A DNA stretch of 11,061 nt from a virus, in UHGV virus genome UHGV-0272930; one strand, 5' to 3'. Under the pieces are notes generated by a model. That model was not told where the DNA came from and did no database searches. It saw only the letters and a list, made by a program, of their open reading frames with translations. Numbering within the stretch: the stretch's first letter is position 1; each line of letters opens with the position of its first letter. Shown piece after piece: positions 1 to 10,961 of this stretch. Made by a program: the position numbers and the translations under genes.

Positions 1-2
1 TG

Positions 3-110
3 CGGGCAACGGTGTTTAATTATATCGAATGTGATTACAATCGGTGGCGGCGGCACAGTTGGTGTGGCGGCCTCAGTCCGGAACAATTTGAAAACCAGAA
101 CCTCGCTTAG
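3..110 (+). CDS. insF: IS3 transposase OrfB (InsF), C-terminal fragment; 5' end lies outside the window
   Basis: Open frame from the window edge to TAG at 108-110; the translation matches the remembered IS3 OrfB C-terminus. Confidence 0.85.
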
Positions 111-140
111 GCCTGTGTCCATATTACGTGGGTAGGATCA
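102..140. repeat. IS3 right terminal inverted repeat (IRR)
   Basis: ctcgcttaggcctgtgtccatattacgtgggtaggatca; its reverse complement aligns with 10923-10961 at 28 of 39 positions, with the conserved TGATC tip. Confidence 0.85.
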
Positions 141-2505
141 TATTGTCCGTGCCGAATACGTCAAAGAATCCCATCTTAACCTTATATTCACCATCAACGA
201 TGTTTGGTACTGAGTCGAATTCAGGTGCATAACTGGTAAACAATCGGCTGGTATTCCCGTTAACAATACTGATAACAGCACCAGCATAATCACGTTCAGT
301 TGATTGTGTCCATGAAGCAAATAAATTACCAAAACCACCAGTGAATGATACGCCTTGTACTAATCCACATTGTTTGTTTTCTACTGTAATTTTCACTTCC
401 TGTGAATACGTTCCATCATTAAATCCCTGTGCGATAATACCAATAGTTGGTTTACGTACTTTTAAACGATTCATCGCAAGAGCGAAATTGAAACTATTGC
501 TTTGCGTATAGAAAGTATCTACAAGGGTTGTACCGTTATAGATTTTAATGATGTAGTACTTGAAGTAATCAGAATACGAGCGACCATTAACGATTAAGTT
601 CTTCTGTGAATCCCATGCAATATTAAAATCAGGTGCATCGGTGATTAACGCTGATTCAGTACGATTTGCCAGTACTACGCCAGTTACGGAAGGTAAAGCA
701 AAGTTATAAGTCGGTACTATTCCGTTAAGGGTTACACGCTGCGATACCAAACCAAGATTGTTATACGCCTCTACCCCAAAGTCATAGCTTGCAGTGTCAG
801 ACAATCCAAACAGTTCATAAGTGGTTTTCTGTACGCCCGTTTGCCCCGCATATGTCCATGTACTGGTACTGTGAAGTTTGTAGTAAACATAATAGCCCCG
901 TAGGTACGGATCTTCTGAAACCGTCCAGGTCAAATCAATGATAGAACCGCTGGTAGTGTTGCCCTTGCGTACTGCCTGTAGATTCGTTGGAGCCTTCACA
1001 GTAAGTTCAGGGAAGTTAATCACACCACCCGGCGACCATACGCCCGGATCTACACCGTCATACATCTGGTCAGGGGCTTCCACGCAGGTTAGCGTTACAT
1101 AGCCTACGTTCTCTTGATCGGTGGCAATGTCCTTGTTCAGTACTTTAAATTTACCTGAGATATTCAATTCGGCATTACTGACATTGATAGCATCCCATAC
1201 CTTGAGATCCCATCCTTCGGATGTGGTAAAGCTGATAGTACGTAAAGCATACTTTGCCTTGAGTACATCAACGTTTGCCATCTTAGCGATGACATCAGGA
1301 TCATATGACCAACTGTAATCACGACTAAGTGCGATTACCTGCCCGTCTTGCCGAACGGCTTCATCAACGGTTATATCTGAAGGTATGCGTACTACATCCG
1401 TGGTGTACATTGATTCAGGGTTAGTGAATTTGCAGTCAACCACATTGAAGTAGTCAGTACCGCCACTGGTTGAAATCTGTACAGCACCAACCATATTAGA
1501 TTCATTAAATGACGCTACTGAAACTGTTTTACGGTCTGTCGTAATACAAATCTGTCCGGCGTGAACATACATAATACCGCCAAATGATTGACAGATATTT
1601 TCTATGTTTTCTTTATAGCTTGATTGGTAACTGATAGCACCATTGGCGTAGTACTCGAAAGCATCACAATAGGCTGCCGTTTCTTTGAAGATATCAAGAT
1701 TAATTAATGCGGGATCAATACCCATCCCATACGTCGTATTTGTTAAGTAATCATAGATAATTGACGGTGGATTACTACTTGCTTTAATACTGCCATCCAC
1801 TAAATCAAAAATACGTTGCCCTTTCATTTCAACGGTCAAAGCAAACTGATCATTAACGAGAATGTTATTTTCTAATGATTTCTTCGTTTTCTTGATAACC
1901 GTACTGATACTAACAATGCCTTTACCAAGAAATTTATTAGTCCATTTTGGCCCTGCATATCCAGTAGCTAACGTTTTAGTACTGGTATAATCACCACCAA
2001 AGCGTACTTCTAGTTGTAGAAATTCCTGATACTTTTCCGCAATACTGGCTTTCGGTACTATGCCATCTTGTGTAATCGGTACGGCTAAAACTGGTTCGTT
2101 ATCGATATAGATCTGTAGAATATTCTTTTCAGTACCCGCATATGCTACAGCCTGTTCTGAAAAGAGATATTGAGAATCACTATTCGGTACGTTGTACCAT
2201 GACACAATTGAACCTGTCAGTACGTATGAACCGCCTGATACCCCGTTTTTATGTGGCAACTCACCGCCATAGATAACAGGTAATCCCGTAGTTGGGGAAG
2301 TACTTCGGCTTAATGAGTCCGACACATCCCCATAACCGCTTACGCCGATTTGCCCCAACATTGATGTAGCCACCAGTGAAGCAGCTCCCGCAGCAGCCCC
2401 CCAGCCAATCGCGGCTAATGCTGTACCGCCAGTAAAGTACACGGCTGCCGCGACAATTACCGCAGTTATGATAGCTCCAAAGAAGCCCCCTAAACTCTTA
2501 CCCAT
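124..2505 (-). CDS. Lambda gpJ-like central tail fibre / tip attachment protein with an N-terminal gpI-like hydrophobic Gly/Ala-rich domain; 3'-truncated by IS3 (native sequence ends at 141, last 4-5 codons and the stop come from the IS3 IRR)
   Basis: 793-aa ORF. Residues around 250-330 (IIYDYLTNTTYGMG...AAYCDAFEY) resemble the lambda J central region (WDMLTHPRYGMG...GQYCDQ). A fibronectin-III-like segment (LTWTVSEDPYLRGYYVYYKL...) follows. The N-terminal 60 residues (MGKSLGGFFGAIITAVIVAAAVYFTGGTALAAIGWGAAAGAASL) resemble the hydrophobic C-terminal half of lambda gpI. The reading frame runs across the IS3 junction at 140/141 and stops at 126..124 inside the IRR. Confidence 0.75.
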   Translation of the reverse strand: MGKSLGGFFGAIITAVIVAAAVYFTGGTALAAIGWGAAAGAASLVATSMLGQIGVSGYGDVSDSLSRSTSPTTGLPVIYGGELPHKNGVSGGSYVLTGSIVSWYNVPNSDSQYLFSEQAVAYAGTEKNILQIYIDNEPVLAVPITQDGIVPKASIAEKYQEFLQLEVRFGGDYTSTKTLATGYAGPKWTNKFLGKGIVSISTVIKKTKKSLENNILVNDQFALTVEMKGQRIFDLVDGSIKASSNPPSIIYDYLTNTTYGMGIDPALINLDIFKETAAYCDAFEYYANGAISYQSSYKENIENICQSFGGIMYVHAGQICITTDRKTVSVASFNESNMVGAVQISTSGGTDYFNVVDCKFTNPESMYTTDVVRIPSDITVDEAVRQDGQVIALSRDYSWSYDPDVIAKMANVDVLKAKYALRTISFTTSEGWDLKVWDAINVSNAELNISGKFKVLNKDIATDQENVGYVTLTCVEAPDQMYDGVDPGVWSPGGVINFPELTVKAPTNLQAVRKGNTTSGSIIDLTWTVSEDPYLRGYYVYYKLHSTSTWTYAGQTGVQKTTYELFGLSDTASYDFGVEAYNNLGLVSQRVTLNGIVPTYNFALPSVTGVVLANRTESALITDAPDFNIAWDSQKNLIVNGRSYSDYFKYYIIKIYNGTTLVDTFYTQSNSFNFALAMNRLKVRKPTIGIIAQGFNDGTYSQEVKITVENKQCGLVQGVSFTGGFGNLFASWTQSTERDYAGAVISIVNGNTSRLFTSYAPEFDSVPNIVDGEYKVKMGFFDVFGTDNMILPT

Positions 2506-2899
2506 TGTGTTTCCTTACTCTATAAAATGTTCCATTCGTTGGTTTTGGATGAAGTTCAAAGCCATCATGGCTTTCATTCACTCCAAGTACCCGACCTGAT
2601 ACAACCACTGCCATAATTAAAGGGTTATCAGGATCTAGCCATATATCACCGTCTATAACGACCTGTACGGGGTTACAGTACTGTTCAACTATCTCCCCTG
2701 TATGATTCCATCCTTCAGCCTTTAGACCTGCTATACCTTCCTGTACGCTTGTATATTCACGATTTGCTAATTGCGTAGTACCATTAATTAAATCGATAAT
2801 ACGTAATACAATAATATTGCAATCGTTATCTCCGAATTGATACGGGTTATCAATGGCGTACTGAATGACATTCATAATTTCATTGTGTAGATTTTTCAT
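2498..2899 (-). CDS. NlpC/P60-type tail tip peptidase, lambda gpK-like but lacking the N-terminal JAB/MPN domain
   Basis: 133 aa. QFGDNDCNIIVL and ESHDGFELHP resemble the Cys and His motifs of the gpK NlpC/P60 domain. Sits immediately upstream of the J-like gene with an 8-nt overlap, and its start overlaps the upstream stop as TAATG. No HxH...S..D JAMM motif is present. Confidence 0.55.
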   Translation of the reverse strand: MKNLHNEIMNVIQYAIDNPYQFGDNDCNIIVLRIIDLINGTTQLANREYTSVQEGIAGLKAEGWNHTGEIVEQYCNPVQVVIDGDIWLDPDNPLIMAVVVSGRVLGVNESHDGFELHPKPTNGTFYRVRKHNG

Positions 2900-3522
2900 T
2901 ATTTGTACTTCCAGTTTTGATTTTGATTAACTTGCCCTAACAGACTAAAGTACTCATCACCTTTGTAGTAAGATTGATATACTGAGTTAGCAGCAATTAA
3001 GGTCGGCTGTCGGTCTAGCTTTTTATATACACTGTTAACGTATATCGTCATTTCGTTAGTTTTTTGATTTGGGTCTGCTACTGCCTGTACGTAATCAATG
3101 AATCCTGAAAACATAAGCATTGAATCGATTACAGTACTGTCATATGGATTCAAGATTACTAATTTGATATTCATCTGAGCATCTTTAAGAAATCCACCTA
3201 ATGCAAGTGCACGTACTGATTGATTCACATTACTGACTTTGAAGTTGATAGCATCATTCGTGATGCCCTTTTGTTCTGAATAGGAAGGAAGTGAACCACT
3301 GATAATATCGGGGAAACTAATATATTGATAACCATCTAAATTGATATCTATAAGTGAGTCTGTCCAGTGAAAACCATTTGTGCCTTTTGGAAGTACATCA
3401 AAACAAGTTACCTGTACACCCAAGCTCATTACATCCATTAGTGTTAATCGTGTTTTCGTCGTACCTTTAACTAACTTCCAGTACTTCAATAGATTGGCAT
3501 TAGTAAAAACTGCATCATTCAT
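2899..3522 (-). CDS. Minor tail protein, lambda gpL-like (N-terminal domain only; no C-terminal Cys cluster)
   Basis: 207 aa. Occupies the lambda M-L-K-I-J position; weak motif resemblance (DGYQYISFP / FKVSNV against lambda L QYQPYP / LTVSNL). TAATG coupling at both ends. Confidence 0.45.
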   Translation of the reverse strand: MNDAVFTNANLLKYWKLVKGTTKTRLTLMDVMSLGVQVTCFDVLPKGTNGFHWTDSLIDINLDGYQYISFPDIISGSLPSYSEQKGITNDAINFKVSNVNQSVRALALGGFLKDAQMNIKLVILNPYDSTVIDSMLMFSGFIDYVQAVADPNQKTNEMTIYVNSVYKKLDRQPTLIAANSVYQSYYKGDEYFSLLGQVNQNQNWKYK

Positions 3523-4079
3523 TATGTAATATTCTCCGTTGCCTTAAATGTCATATTCATTATGTTACCGACTGGCAATGTATAGTCATTATCAGGGTCC
3601 AGTACTGCTTCGATCATCAGATTGTTATATTTAATAATCTCGCTTGCCTGTACTGTATTTTGTAAGACAGGAAAAATAGTAATAGAAGTACTGGTACGTT
3701 CTACAATGCGATATATTTTATTGTGGTTAGTAAATTGAATCCATTCACCTATCGCTAGAGAATTAGTACTGGTGTTGATTACCCTATTGCCTTTGTTAAC
3801 AAGTGCAGTACTGGTTAACGATCCCGTTTGTGTGCCTCTGTAGGTACTCAACAATCCAAGAGAAAAAGTAAAGGGCTTACCCTGTGAGTACTGAGCAAGG
3901 AAGTTTTGAACCTCTCCAATACTGGCAGTATTGAAACTTAACTGAAACTGAATCTCATAGTATTGAATACCTGTACTTCTCATGATACGTTGCCCTGTCC
4001 ATGTCTGATTTGAATAGACAGGTTCAGTACTTTTAATCTGGAAGTTTGTTATTTTTATTTGATTTGAAAAAGATGCCAT
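3522..4079 (-). CDS. Distal tail protein, lambda gpM-like with a C-terminal extension
   Basis: 185 aa. N-terminal segment YEIQFQLSF...EVQNFLAQYSQGKPFTF resembles lambda M (YSVTLSVPREEATVLESFLEEHGGWKSFLW). GAGGT Shine-Dalgarno 4-5 nt before the ATG at 4079. First gene of the tail tip set. Confidence 0.45.
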   Translation of the reverse strand: MASFSNQIKITNFQIKSTEPVYSNQTWTGQRIMRSTGIQYYEIQFQLSFNTASIGEVQNFLAQYSQGKPFTFSLGLLSTYRGTQTGSLTSTALVNKGNRVINTSTNSLAIGEWIQFTNHNKIYRIVERTSTSITIFPVLQNTVQASEIIKYNNLMIEAVLDPDNDYTLPVGNIMNMTFKATENIT

Positions 4080-4114
4080 TGTAACCTCAACAATCCTTGT
4101 TTCGAGTATTTATT

Positions 4115-4735
4115 ATGATTGACTTCTTAAACCACATATTGCCTATATTATCTGCTATTGCATTCCCTATAGTTGTTGTAGTAGTAACTCTTTATATAGT
4201 CTACAGAAGCGGAAGTACATCCATCATTGCTAATAAGATATGGGGGATATTCATTGGTGAGAAAAATTTCTTCAATGAAGAATTAGCATTAAAAGAAAAG
4301 GTTGAACATGATGTTGCTAAATTCAACTTTAAAGTAAATCTGAAAACCAGGAATCTCACTCAAATTGAACAATTTTATAAATTTCTGGAAAAATTCGATC
4401 TGGATATAGATAACTTCAAAGGACTTCGTGACTGCTACTTGCCCTCATTGCAGAAGGTCAAAAAAACATCTAAAAGTGAAATGTTTAATATTGGCCTGGT
4501 TGTCTTGTTAATAGGCGGTTTTTTGTTACCTATCTTCATTGGCGTGTTTATATTTAGAGACATTTCTACTTTCGACGGGGGGAAATTAGCAAATCTATTC
4601 TTTTATACGTTTTTAATTTCTGCCAGTACAGTTTTAAGTTTTAGTCAGTTACTTAGAAAGATTAAGTCAATCAGAACCCGTAAATTGATCTATAAAAAGA
4701 AATGCGAATATCTTGCAAACAGAAAGCCCATGTAG
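4115..4735 (+). CDS. Hypothetical membrane protein (moron) on the opposite strand to the structural operon; predicted N-terminal helix, soluble K/E/F-rich domain, two C-terminal helices and a basic tail; no recognisable family
   Basis: Only long plus-strand ORF not antisense to a minus-strand gene. ATG at 4115 (the ORF track begins at an in-frame TTG at 4097). Hydrophobic stretches ILPILSAIAFPIVVVVVTLYIVY, FNIGLVVLLIGGFLLPIFIGVFIF and FFYTFLISASTVLSFSQLL. Markedly more AT-rich than its neighbours by eye. Stop TAG at 4733-4735 lies inside a hairpin. Confidence 0.6.
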   Translation: MIDFLNHILPILSAIAFPIVVVVVTLYIVYRSGSTSIIANKIWGIFIGEKNFFNEELALKEKVEHDVAKFNFKVNLKTRNLTQIEQFYKFLEKFDLDIDNFKGLRDCYLPSLQKVKKTSKSEMFNIGLVVLLIGGFLLPIFIGVFIFRDISTFDGGKLANLFFYTFLISASTVLSFSQLLRKIKSIRTRKLIYKKKCEYLANRKPM

Positions 4736-4742
4736 GGCTTTC
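4722..4742. terminator. Candidate bidirectional stem-loop between convergent genes (8-bp stem, 5-nt loop)
   Basis: gaaagccc (4722-4729), atgta loop, gggctttc (4735-4742) form a perfect inverted repeat. It spans the moron stop codon and ends one base before the stop codon of the minus-strand tail gene (4743-4745). Flanking U-tracts are weak in both directions. Confidence 0.4.
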
Positions 4743-5846
4743 TTAAGAATTACGTCTCTGGCTGCTTCTTACTGCCTGTGTCACACTGTTGGCGTGCTTC
4801 TTCAACATTTCATTGAATTTCTTATCATCACCTGCAACGTCACCCTGAATGATTAAGGGAGCGTTAACGGTGATGTCACCAGCAGTACTACCGCCTTTGT
4901 CCTGAGTATCGAGGAATTTAGTAAGTTTCTTGTTGGCTTCTGGCTGTACGACACGCTCACCGGCTTTCAGTACGAATGATTTATTATCATAACTAGATGG
5001 TAATTCATCTACGCCGCCGTGGAACTGCCCCGCATCAGCACCTTTTGCAGTACTGATAATGCTCAATCCAAGAGAGGCTACCTGTGCATAGTTCGCAAGG
5101 TTTTGAGGCCACGGCGTAGCAAGTGCCTGTGCAAGTGCGGATTGAATGCTTAGTACTGTCTGAGCTATCGTGATCCCACGTGAAACCATGAATGCCGCTT
5201 CGGCTGCACCAGACGATTCCCCAAATGCGGCCACCATCGCCCCACTAAGGTTTTGTGCAGTATCTGAGAAGATTGTGAGTTGTTGCTGTGCATTCTGGTT
5301 ACTGATATCAATGGCCTGAGCATTGTACTTTGCTGTTATACCAGTAGTGTTAGCACCTACGCCGTAATCCCCCTGATAGACAGGAAGAGGTGCAGCCATT
5401 GTCATTACACGGGCAACTACATCAGCAGGTGTAAATGAATAGGATTTAGTAACTACCTGATCCTTATCCCCGGATAATTGAGTACCCGTAACGTAACCAT
5501 TGACGATGGCATAAGTGATCTGACTTTCTTCTAAATCTAATTGATACTGAATAATGACCTGAAATACAGTTTGTGATTCAGCTATTTCATCTAAGAATTG
5601 GTGCGTAGGATCATCAGGTAAGTATGCAACCACAATATCAAATGGTTCTACTGATTTATCGGATAGTAGTACTGTCTTGTACTCATTATCATAGGTTTCA
5701 AAATTATTTGTTTCTGACTGGATGGTTAGAGCAGGAAATTCAGTTACATTATTAATAGTAACATTGCCTATGCCCTGTGGTGAACGGTTTCCAGTGTCCG
5801 TATTATATTGTAAAGTTAATCCCTTACCTGAAAAAATGTCGGCCAT
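4743..5846 (-). CDS. Chimeric tail protein: major tail tube (lambda gpV-like) N-terminal domain joined in frame to a tape-measure (lambda gpH-like) C-terminal region
   Basis: 367 aa. Residues 1 to about 150 (...TEFPALTIQSETNNFETYDNEY...KSVEPFDIVVAYLPDD...) resemble the gpV N-domain. Residues from about 160 are a Gly/Ala-rich hydrophobic block followed by GQFHGGVDEL...FVLKAGERVVQPEANKKL, resembling tape-measure C-termini. AAGGA Shine-Dalgarno 8 nt before the ATG at 5846. Confidence 0.5.
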   Translation of the reverse strand: MADIFSGKGLTLQYNTDTGNRSPQGIGNVTINNVTEFPALTIQSETNNFETYDNEYKTVLLSDKSVEPFDIVVAYLPDDPTHQFLDEIAESQTVFQVIIQYQLDLEESQITYAIVNGYVTGTQLSGDKDQVVTKSYSFTPADVVARVMTMAAPLPVYQGDYGVGANTTGITAKYNAQAIDISNQNAQQQLTIFSDTAQNLSGAMVAAFGESSGAAEAAFMVSRGITIAQTVLSIQSALAQALATPWPQNLANYAQVASLGLSIISTAKGADAGQFHGGVDELPSSYDNKSFVLKAGERVVQPEANKKLTKFLDTQDKGGSTAGDITVNAPLIIQGDVAGDDKKFNEMLKKHANSVTQAVRSSQRRNS

Positions 5847-5863
5847 TTTATATCCTTATAGCG

Positions 5864-6256
5864 TTATCTTGTTTTCTCCGTAACTTGAATATTTATCGTG
5901 AATGATAAAGAAACCGAGCCAGTTATAGGGTCTGTTACGATATCGGATTGTTCATATGAGTAAGAGAGAATGATTAAATCAGCATCCTTGAAAGCACGTG
6001 CTTTCTCATTATCAAAAGTACTGATAATCTGATCATAAGTAATTGATGGTGCAGTGTTGCCTGATTCTGGTTTTGGACTAATCAAGTACTGAATAGCAAA
6101 GTTACCTGCTTGTCTCTGCCCTCCAAAAGAAATTGAAGACAATGAGTAATCAAATGCTATCTGTTCAAATACATCGGCATCACGTGATATTGTTAGATTC
6201 TTAGTTGCGTTGATTAGCTGTTTCATTGTCTGGCGTACTTTCTGTACTAACATCAT
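5864..6256 (-). CDS. Putative tail terminator / tail completion protein (lambda gpU position and size)
   Basis: About 130 aa when started at the ATG at 6256, which is preceded by a GAGGA Shine-Dalgarno and lies 1 nt after the upstream stop. The ORF track's start at 6334 would overlap the upstream gene by 77 nt and is probably a spurious extension. Weak resemblance to gpU (SRDADVFEQIAFDY against GRPAVFDEADFPAV). Confidence 0.35.
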   Translation of the reverse strand: MMLVQKVRQTMKQLINATKNLTISRDADVFEQIAFDYSLSSISFGGQRQAGNFAIQYLISPKPESGNTAPSITYDQIISTFDNEKARAFKDADLIILSYSYEQSDIVTDPITGSVSLSFTINIQVTEKTR

Positions 6257-6257
6257 A

Positions 6258-6581
6258 TTAGTAGTCCTCTGCAAATGAAGCACCAGCAGAAGTACGAAAG
6301 TAGCAATTAACCATACCTGACCGATCATCTTCAATATTATAAATTGTTTGGTTTACACCATCGATGATCAGTACTGTACCGATAGCTATATCAGCATTAA
6401 CTAAATCATCCTTTCTCATTGTTACGTATGTTTCTGTACTTTCGATAAATCCACCTGCCGCTTCAATAGAAACGGGAAGTACTTCTGCAATTCCAGTAAA
6501 AGTACTTCCCGTAGAAGTTTGGATTAATTGACCGAAAGCATTTAGAAACGTATCTTGTTGACCGTTAGAAAATGCTCTCAT
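6258..6581 (-). CDS. Head-tail joining protein, lambda gpFII-like
   Basis: 107 aa. C-terminal half (...DIAIGTVLIIDGVNQTIYNIEDDRSGMVNCYFRTS) resembles lambda FII (...GDTLTIGEENFWVDRVSPDDGGSCHLWLGRG). Lies directly downstream of the capsid gene. Confidence 0.5.
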   Translation of the reverse strand: MRAFSNGQQDTFLNAFGQLIQTSTGSTFTGIAEVLPVSIEAAGGFIESTETYVTMRKDDLVNADIAIGTVLIIDGVNQTIYNIEDDRSGMVNCYFRTSAGASFAEDY

Positions 6582-6586
6582 AGTTA

Positions 6587-10408
<3,822 letters not shown>

Positions 10409-10411
10409 TTA

Positions 10412-10961
<550 letters not shown>

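Follow-up and report, generated by a model that had tools for sequence, protein, structure and literature searches.

For a siphovirus tail tube to polymerise, its tube protein, a tape measure and the chaperones G and G-T are all required, and the C-terminal end of the tape measure sits in the tail tip complex. In lambda the corresponding genes form the block V, G, G-T and H. Cryptic prophages of E. coli, for example Rac, e14, DLP12 and Qin of K-12, decay by internal deletion and by insertion of IS elements. A third point of comparison is Tab, encoded by Pseudomonas prophages, which stops tails from being assembled, its activity being directed at the tape measure (PMC10884400).

The locus described here can be set against each of these. 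Like cryptic E. coli prophages, it combines an internal deletion, IS3 copies that truncate essential genes, secondary frameshifts and a near-clonal set of genomes; unlike their typical pseudogenes, it carries a deletion that is in frame and so has left a tidy chimeric ORF of 367 aa. The undeleted relatives of the element have the lambda V/G/G-T/H block in the same order, with the –1 slip site A_AAA_AAG ending G, but with an additional gene before it, for a long fibre borne on a tube-like N-terminal domain. Of that block, the window (the whole stretch of 11 061 nt analysed here) retains only the last 198 codons of the tape measure gene. The parent fibre resembles tube proteins of the lambda gpV type (phrog_158, N-domain PF16461), which have an Ig-like C-terminal decoration, in that it is likewise a tube N-domain with something added at the C-terminus; here, however, the decoration is a long fibre, and a plain tube protein is encoded separately downstream. 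With Tab the likeness is one of analogy: the shared idea is that of a prophage protein interfering with tape-measure-dependent tail assembly, and no anti-Tab partner is present. We conclude that the ORF is almost certainly a fusion pseudogene, produced by one in-frame deletion of 5184 bp in a decaying lambda-like siphovirus prophage of Escherichia. The case is one of ordinary prophage decay, long known in E. coli, and not of a new kind of tail protein.

Organization of the structural module

On the minus strand the module runs from a terminase remnant through a 176-aa ORF, the portal, protease-capsid and FII-like connector genes and a 129-aa ORF to the 367-aa ORF; past the latter it continues with an antisense DUF6216 gene, the distal tail protein, the tail tip protein, DUF6950 and the J-like tip fibre:

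10412..10924 (–), large terminase remnant (GpA family), residues 426–595 of 595, cut off by IS3
8361..9869 (–), portal protein, lambda family (PF05136, E 1e-61)
6587..8413 (–), fused prohead protease and major capsid protein, 608 aa (PF04586, PF05065; phrog_617, E 6e-81)
6258..6581 (–), head-tail attachment protein, lambda FII-like, weak match (PF05354, E 2e-4, below cut-off)
5864..6253 (–), neck or tail-completion candidate, 129 aa, no family match, position conserved
4743..5846 (–), chimeric 367-aa ORF, almost certainly an in-frame deletion scar (WP_053263671.1)
4097..4735 (+), antisense, DUF6216 membrane-protein gene (PF19723, E 5.6e-22)
3522..4079 (–), distal tail protein, 185 aa, apparently intact (phrog_1302, E 2.6e-14; PF21430 below cut-off)
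2899..3522 (–), tail tip protein, 207 aa (phrog_2048, E 3.9e-24)
2498..2899 (–), DUF6950 tail tip protein, 133 aa (PF22262, E 5.5e-9)
124..2505 (–), J-like central tip fibre gene, IS3-truncated, residues 1–789 of 1067 followed by ILPT from the IS

The 129-aa ORF is conserved directly upstream of the fibre gene in relatives. The 608-aa protease-capsid ORF overlaps the portal gene by 53 nt, and its fused arrangement is known (phrog_617, phrog_4523) but less common. E. coli has a GC content of ∼51%. Over most of the module GC is ∼35–42%, except in the Ala/Gly-rich tape-measure region (49%) and some stretches of J, and this low value suggests a phage lineage from a lower-GC background.

The 367-aa ORF combines two tail protein families

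Three features can be distinguished within the ORF, where L020 denotes the undeleted relative introduced in the next section:

5337..5846 (–), N-half, residues 1–170, tube-protein-like N-terminal domain of a tail-fibre gene (939 aa in L020)
4743..5339 (–), C-half, residues 170–367 and stop, last 198 residues of a 736-aa tape measure protein
5337..5339 (–), deletion junction, ATA (Ile170) codon, 3-nt microhomology

An earlier note on this DNA had described a single ORF joining a tube-like N-domain to a tape-measure-like C-terminus, and profile searches bear this out. Residues 1–153 match the PHROGs 'major tail protein' profile phrog_158 (profile positions 13–165 of 376, E 1.7e-10), which places the N-half in the TTP superfamily. 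Within residues 170–366 there are matches to the tape measure profiles phrog_13674 (positions 578–756 of 764, E 3e-28) and phrog_1506 (positions 1077–1225 of 1269, E 6.5e-18), and the C-half (residues 170–367) is a tape measure protein by this measure; it also matches phrog_21845, phrog_20905 and phrog_21688, the tape measure profiles being hit at their C-terminal ends only, as well as annotated tape measures of cultured phages. The ORF does not hold a full-length ruler: 198 of the 736 tape measure residues are left, and it covers positions 578–756 of phrog_13674 only.

In these searches no family took in the whole protein. PHROGs divides it into its two halves, Pfam has no match anywhere in the 367 residues, N-half included, NCBIfam has none for the fusion or its unannotated neighbours, and sequence and profile searches of PDB returned nothing meaningful for the fusion. 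The AlphaFold2 model of the fusion, built from a 24-sequence alignment, has a mean pLDDT of 51.5 and a pTM of 0.30 and is unreliable for a fold search; at this low confidence its predicted secondary structure consists mostly of strands with one helix at residues 81–91. The absence of G and G-T chaperones, also noted earlier, is likewise seen here, and there is no separate tube gene in the window: no whole ORF of it was assigned to a tail tube or tail assembly chaperone family in Pfam, PHROGs or NCBIfam, and it has no G and G-T pair with a programmed –1 frameshift before the tape measure. The same note considered tube and ruler stoichiometries incompatible in one polypeptide unless the product is processed or alternatively initiated. 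Nothing suggests either event, because neither an in-phase slippery heptamer nor an internal start preceded by a Shine-Dalgarno-like sequence was found near the junction.

Mapping of the deletion

Two relatives were dropped as intact references: the contig L001, whose own tape measure is cut by an IS, and L013 (Enterobacteriaceae bacterium ENNIH3), whose tape measure is split in two ORFs and in DNA only ∼70–75% identical to the window. Both were replaced by an undeleted contiguous relative, L020, a single contig of Scandinavium lactucae V105_6 that came from a scan of one genome per species; it belongs to another genus than the carriers of the fusion and is not fully intact, its J being frameshifted.

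Window positions 5337–8146 correspond to L020 1–2819 at 98.3% DNA identity, and positions 140–5339 to L020 8001–13209 at 94.9%. Missing relative to L020 are exactly 5184 bp, a multiple of 3 equal to 1728 codons. The shared ATA is at once codon 170 of the fibre gene (L020 2817–2819) and codon 539 of the tape measure gene (L020 8001–8003), and the 30 nt flanking the junction on either side agree fully with L020, at 2817 and 8001. A comparison with further contigs gives matches of window positions 5337–10930 to the E. coli contig L008 (98.6% DNA identity) and of positions 140–5339 to L001 (93.6%), which overlap by 3 nt. At the protein level the relatives of the two halves switch sharply at residue 170: residues 1–170 are 98–99% identical to residues 1–170 of the proteins P0004 and P0006, and the C-half is 98% identical to P0001 and, over 138 aa, 100% identical to P0015, an undeleted tape-measure fragment of E. 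coli. Both parental alleles are found undeleted in E. coli at 98–100% identity (fibre in L008, P0006 and P0004; tape measure in P0015).

The N-half is related less to the tube protein than to the fibre. It shares 31% identity with the 151-aa tube protein of L013 (BLASTP, E 9e-19) and 52% with the N-terminal end of that genome's orthologous fibre (793 aa), and its closest relatives are the N-termini of 497–622-aa proteins named 'tail fiber domain-containing' or 'pyocin knob domain-containing'. In this respect the earlier proposal has to be amended. It postulated an in-frame internal deletion from the end of V into H; the deletion itself is now established to the base against L020, but its left breakpoint lies in the fibre gene and not in V, so that the N-half is a fibre domain paralogous to the tube protein, and nothing is left of the true 154-aa tube gene. 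The size assumed for the block, about 4 kb, compares with a loss of 5.2 kb relative to L020, and the predicted junction near 5350–5400 was close, 10–60 nt from the actual one at 5337–5339.

The deletion thus joined tail-fibre codon 170 to tape-measure codon 539 (of 736) at the shared ATA. It probably arose by microhomology-mediated illegitimate recombination or by replication slippage; the reading frame would then have been kept by chance, with a likelihood of one in three.

Genes removed by the deletion

In L020 the deleted interval comprises residues 171–939 of the 939-aa fibre gene, the whole 154-aa tail tube gene (phrog_158, E 1e-18), the 99-aa chaperone G (phrog_344, E 1e-6) and residues 1–538 of the 736-aa tape measure, that is, its N-terminal 73%. 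The fibre matches phrog_158 over residues 1–152 and, towards its C-terminus, several tail-fibre profiles, among them phrog_1980; the L013 orthologue of the tube protein passes the PF08813 cut-off (27.2 versus 24.2 bits); and the tape measure matches phrog_13674 end to end (positions 4–756, E 3e-87). The chaperone gene ends GAA AAA AAG TAA, and its A_AAA_AAG is in phase for a –1 shift into a 121-aa T frame; L013 also has A_AAA_AAG in phase. The gene order is the same in L013 and in L015 (Shigella sonnei), which are more distant relatives. The DUF6216 gene stands between the tape measure and the distal tail protein in L001, L013 and L020 and is absent in L009; it has no match among the PADLOC defence models and looks like a conserved inserted cargo gene (moron) outside the lesion.

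Since the tube, G/G-T and ruler are lost and siphovirus tube polymerisation needs them, the element should be unable to build a tail, and the defect of the tail module that was suspected earlier follows from what is deleted relative to L020. No tail would be polymerised, with no tube subunit, chaperone or ruler left. Together with the breaks in J and terminase described below, the loss of the tube gene, both chaperones and 73% of the tape measure makes the element a defective (cryptic) prophage.

It should be noted that the relatives called undeleted have irregularities of their own. The tape measure of L013 (9066–11497) is split into ORFs of 290 and 498 aa that jointly cover the tape measure profile, and J of L020 (10844–14046) is frameshifted near residue 905; these are either defects or sequencing errors. 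L015 has two IS insertions.

Among phages, the Escherichia phage DCP80 (L019, PQ671644.1) shows a similar run of gene sizes at positions 1–18299. These first 18 kb hold an annotated large terminase, homologues of the window's capsid and fibre N-domain, and portal-, tube-, chaperone- and tape-measure-sized ORFs in matching positions. The record is labelled Straboviridae (T4-like, 141 kb) despite this siphovirus-type first part, and it may be chimeric or misclassified. The best phage record reaches 29% protein identity for the capsid and 33% for the N-domain, and the parent phage family is without a close cultured representative.

IS3 insertions and further decay

The window begins and ends in IS3 sequence:

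1..141 (unstranded), IS3 end, 99.3% identity to an IS3-family element in L001
10923..11061 (unstranded), second IS3 end, same orientation, 100% identity to the L001 IS

Thousands of E. coli records contain annotated IS3 transposase elements with 98–99.7% identity to the first of these. In L001 the head genes were lost to an IS. As a result of the IS3 truncation, which is present in all copies seen, J is without its C-terminal 278 residues. The terminase truncation belongs to the window's variant: its extent was measured by tblastn against the 595-aa terminase of L002, and the first 425 residues are gone in the window. L002 has an intact terminase together with the same deletion and the same J truncation, and the IS3 insertion in terminase is therefore the later event. 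Beyond the deletion, the decay of the element includes IS3 insertion into J, IS3 insertion into terminase (in the window's variant) and a frameshift within the fusion in a sub-lineage.

A remnant of the family, with a J that is ∼76% identical, is present in E. coli 14EC007 (L018, NZ_CP024131.1, 2142168–2177228). It lies between mipA and yeaG, beside a serine recombinase, and is cut up by two IS3-family copies. The mipA/yeaG locus may be an integration site of this prophage family.

Distribution of the fusion allele and alternative readings

At least 24 contigs, drawn from NCBI isolate assemblies, ENA and Logan, encode exactly this 367-aa protein, and GCA_001268685.1 is one example of a carrier genome; the hosts of the allele are Escherichia, and the protein record, WP_053263671.1, is titled 'MULTISPECIES: hypothetical protein [Escherichia]'. 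Copies of intact length are near-identical, being the exact protein and one 367-aa variant, P0059. A derivative of 219 aa, P0054, has the same junction and then a frameshift; a single look-up listed 64 contigs with this derivative and 11 with the intact fusion. Among the proteins that cluster with the window ORF, P0058 has the terminal ILPT of IS3 read-through that is also found in the window's J, and P0056 and P0057 are each truncated differently. P0054, P0056, P0057 and P0058 represent further independent lesions in the same gene of other genomes. All copies are near-identical, and selection on the fusion is apparently not readable from them in either direction.

The allele is absent from several large collections. 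Megablast of window positions 3400–6700 against 5426 complete E. coli genomes gave no match; the whole window matched the complete E. coli genomes only at the IS3 ends and at one 76%-identical remnant, and plasmid and phage collections only at IS3. The exact 24-nt junction pattern had no match among genomes taken one per species, and the deleted allele is therefore in no species-representative genome.

An ORF that is open and identical on so many contigs could be expressed and have some activity, which speaks against regarding it as a pseudogene. One may imagine that the chimera has been co-opted as an expressed, dominant-negative poison of tail assembly directed against related superinfecting siphophages. 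It retains the tape-measure end that normally lies in the tail tip complex, and its neighbours are the distal tail and hub genes, which are intact. Defences that act by a block of tail assembly are known from prophages (PMC10884400), and by analogy with Tab an accidental deletion product would, if this were true, have been exapted as a Tab-like defence. We nevertheless consider this very improbable. PADLOC returned no hit at E ≤ 0.01 for the fusion or its unannotated neighbours, although its 2023 library may not include Tab; the frameshifted derivative is on more listed contigs than the intact form; clonal spread explains the near-identity of all copies equally well; and neighbouring genes are being destroyed by IS3.

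Still less credit, close to none, can be given to a naturally miniaturised tail gene, the alternative raised earlier, in which one polypeptide would serve as tube and ruler of a short-tailed phage or of a gene-transfer-agent-like particle. The ORF is indeed in frame and intact, and the neighbouring genes for head, distal tail, hub and DUF6950 seem undamaged. Such a gene would be expected to have diverged relatives, however, and both halves occur together only in copies of this allele. The first homologue search, of 5.8 billion proteins, gave 52 hits, 47 of which carry the tape-measure C-half (relatives of the latter are the C-termini of tape-measure-like proteins, up to 607 aa where complete); the only hit with both halves was P0002, a 219-aa frameshifted copy of the same allele. 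The N-domain family comprises 137 representative clusters at 50% identity, drawn from 1.84 billion representatives, and a tape-measure half was present only in P0069, a fragment of the same allele. Across these 137 clusters and the 47 C-half hits, then, the two halves stand together only in truncated copies of the allele studied here, and neither the clusters nor the 52 hits of the first search include a diverged homologue with a tube domain followed by a tape-measure C-terminus. Moreover, the relative that is 98% and 95% identical on the two sides has the full fibre-tube-G-G-T-tape block exactly between the breakpoints, J (lacking 278 C-terminal residues) and the window's terminase (lacking the first 425) are broken in the same element, and the frameshifted derivative is on 64 contigs.

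A chimeric contig that wrongly joins two genes is hardly conceivable either: the window does look like a short-read contig bounded by 139–141 nt of IS3 at each end, and the name k141_146429 of the identical contig L004 suggests a 141-mer assembly, but the same junction occurs in independent assemblies (NCBI isolates, on contigs of 112 and 378 kb, ENA and Logan) and has no repeat longer than 3 nt that could mislead an assembler. The length of the IS3 ends, 139–141 nt, suggests a 141-mer short-read assembly broken at repeats.

The reading as a fusion pseudogene is thus the one we adopt, and the chimeric protein is most likely without function. The fusion by itself is of minor importance. It cleanly illustrates, at base resolution, prophage decay by a 5184-bp microhomology deletion and IS3 truncations, and it warns that a strange combination of domains in a prophage protein may be no more than the in-frame scar of a deletion. 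In annotation, WP_053263671.1 is better treated as a fusion pseudogene than as a tail protein.

Tail fibres with a tube-like N-terminal domain

A more interesting by-product of the analysis is the parent protein family, fibres that are anchored by a tube-protein-like N-domain and encoded directly upstream of the true tube gene. A literature search yielded no account of fibres anchored in this way, nor of the present fusion. In the undeleted relatives two tube-type genes stand in tandem (L020 2310–5650, L013 5422–8325, L015 10001–13349). The first encodes a 622–939-aa protein with a tube-like N-domain and a long fibre and lies upstream of the tube gene; the second, downstream, encodes a plain tube protein of 151–157 aa. 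Judged by sequence, the N-terminal domain of the fibre is a paralogue of the tube protein. The L013 fibre orthologue also matches the Ig-like end of phrog_158 (positions 298–370), and 4 of 6 aligned members of the N-domain family match PF16460.

Within the family the domain is at the N-terminus in all but a few hits. Most cluster representatives are long (104 of the 137 have at least 500 aa; median 877 aa), and full fibre proteins have 600–1500 aa. All eight sampled members of the family end in a Peptidase_S74 intramolecular chaperone; this module is within the fibre in L013 and is a separate ORF of 286 aa in L015.
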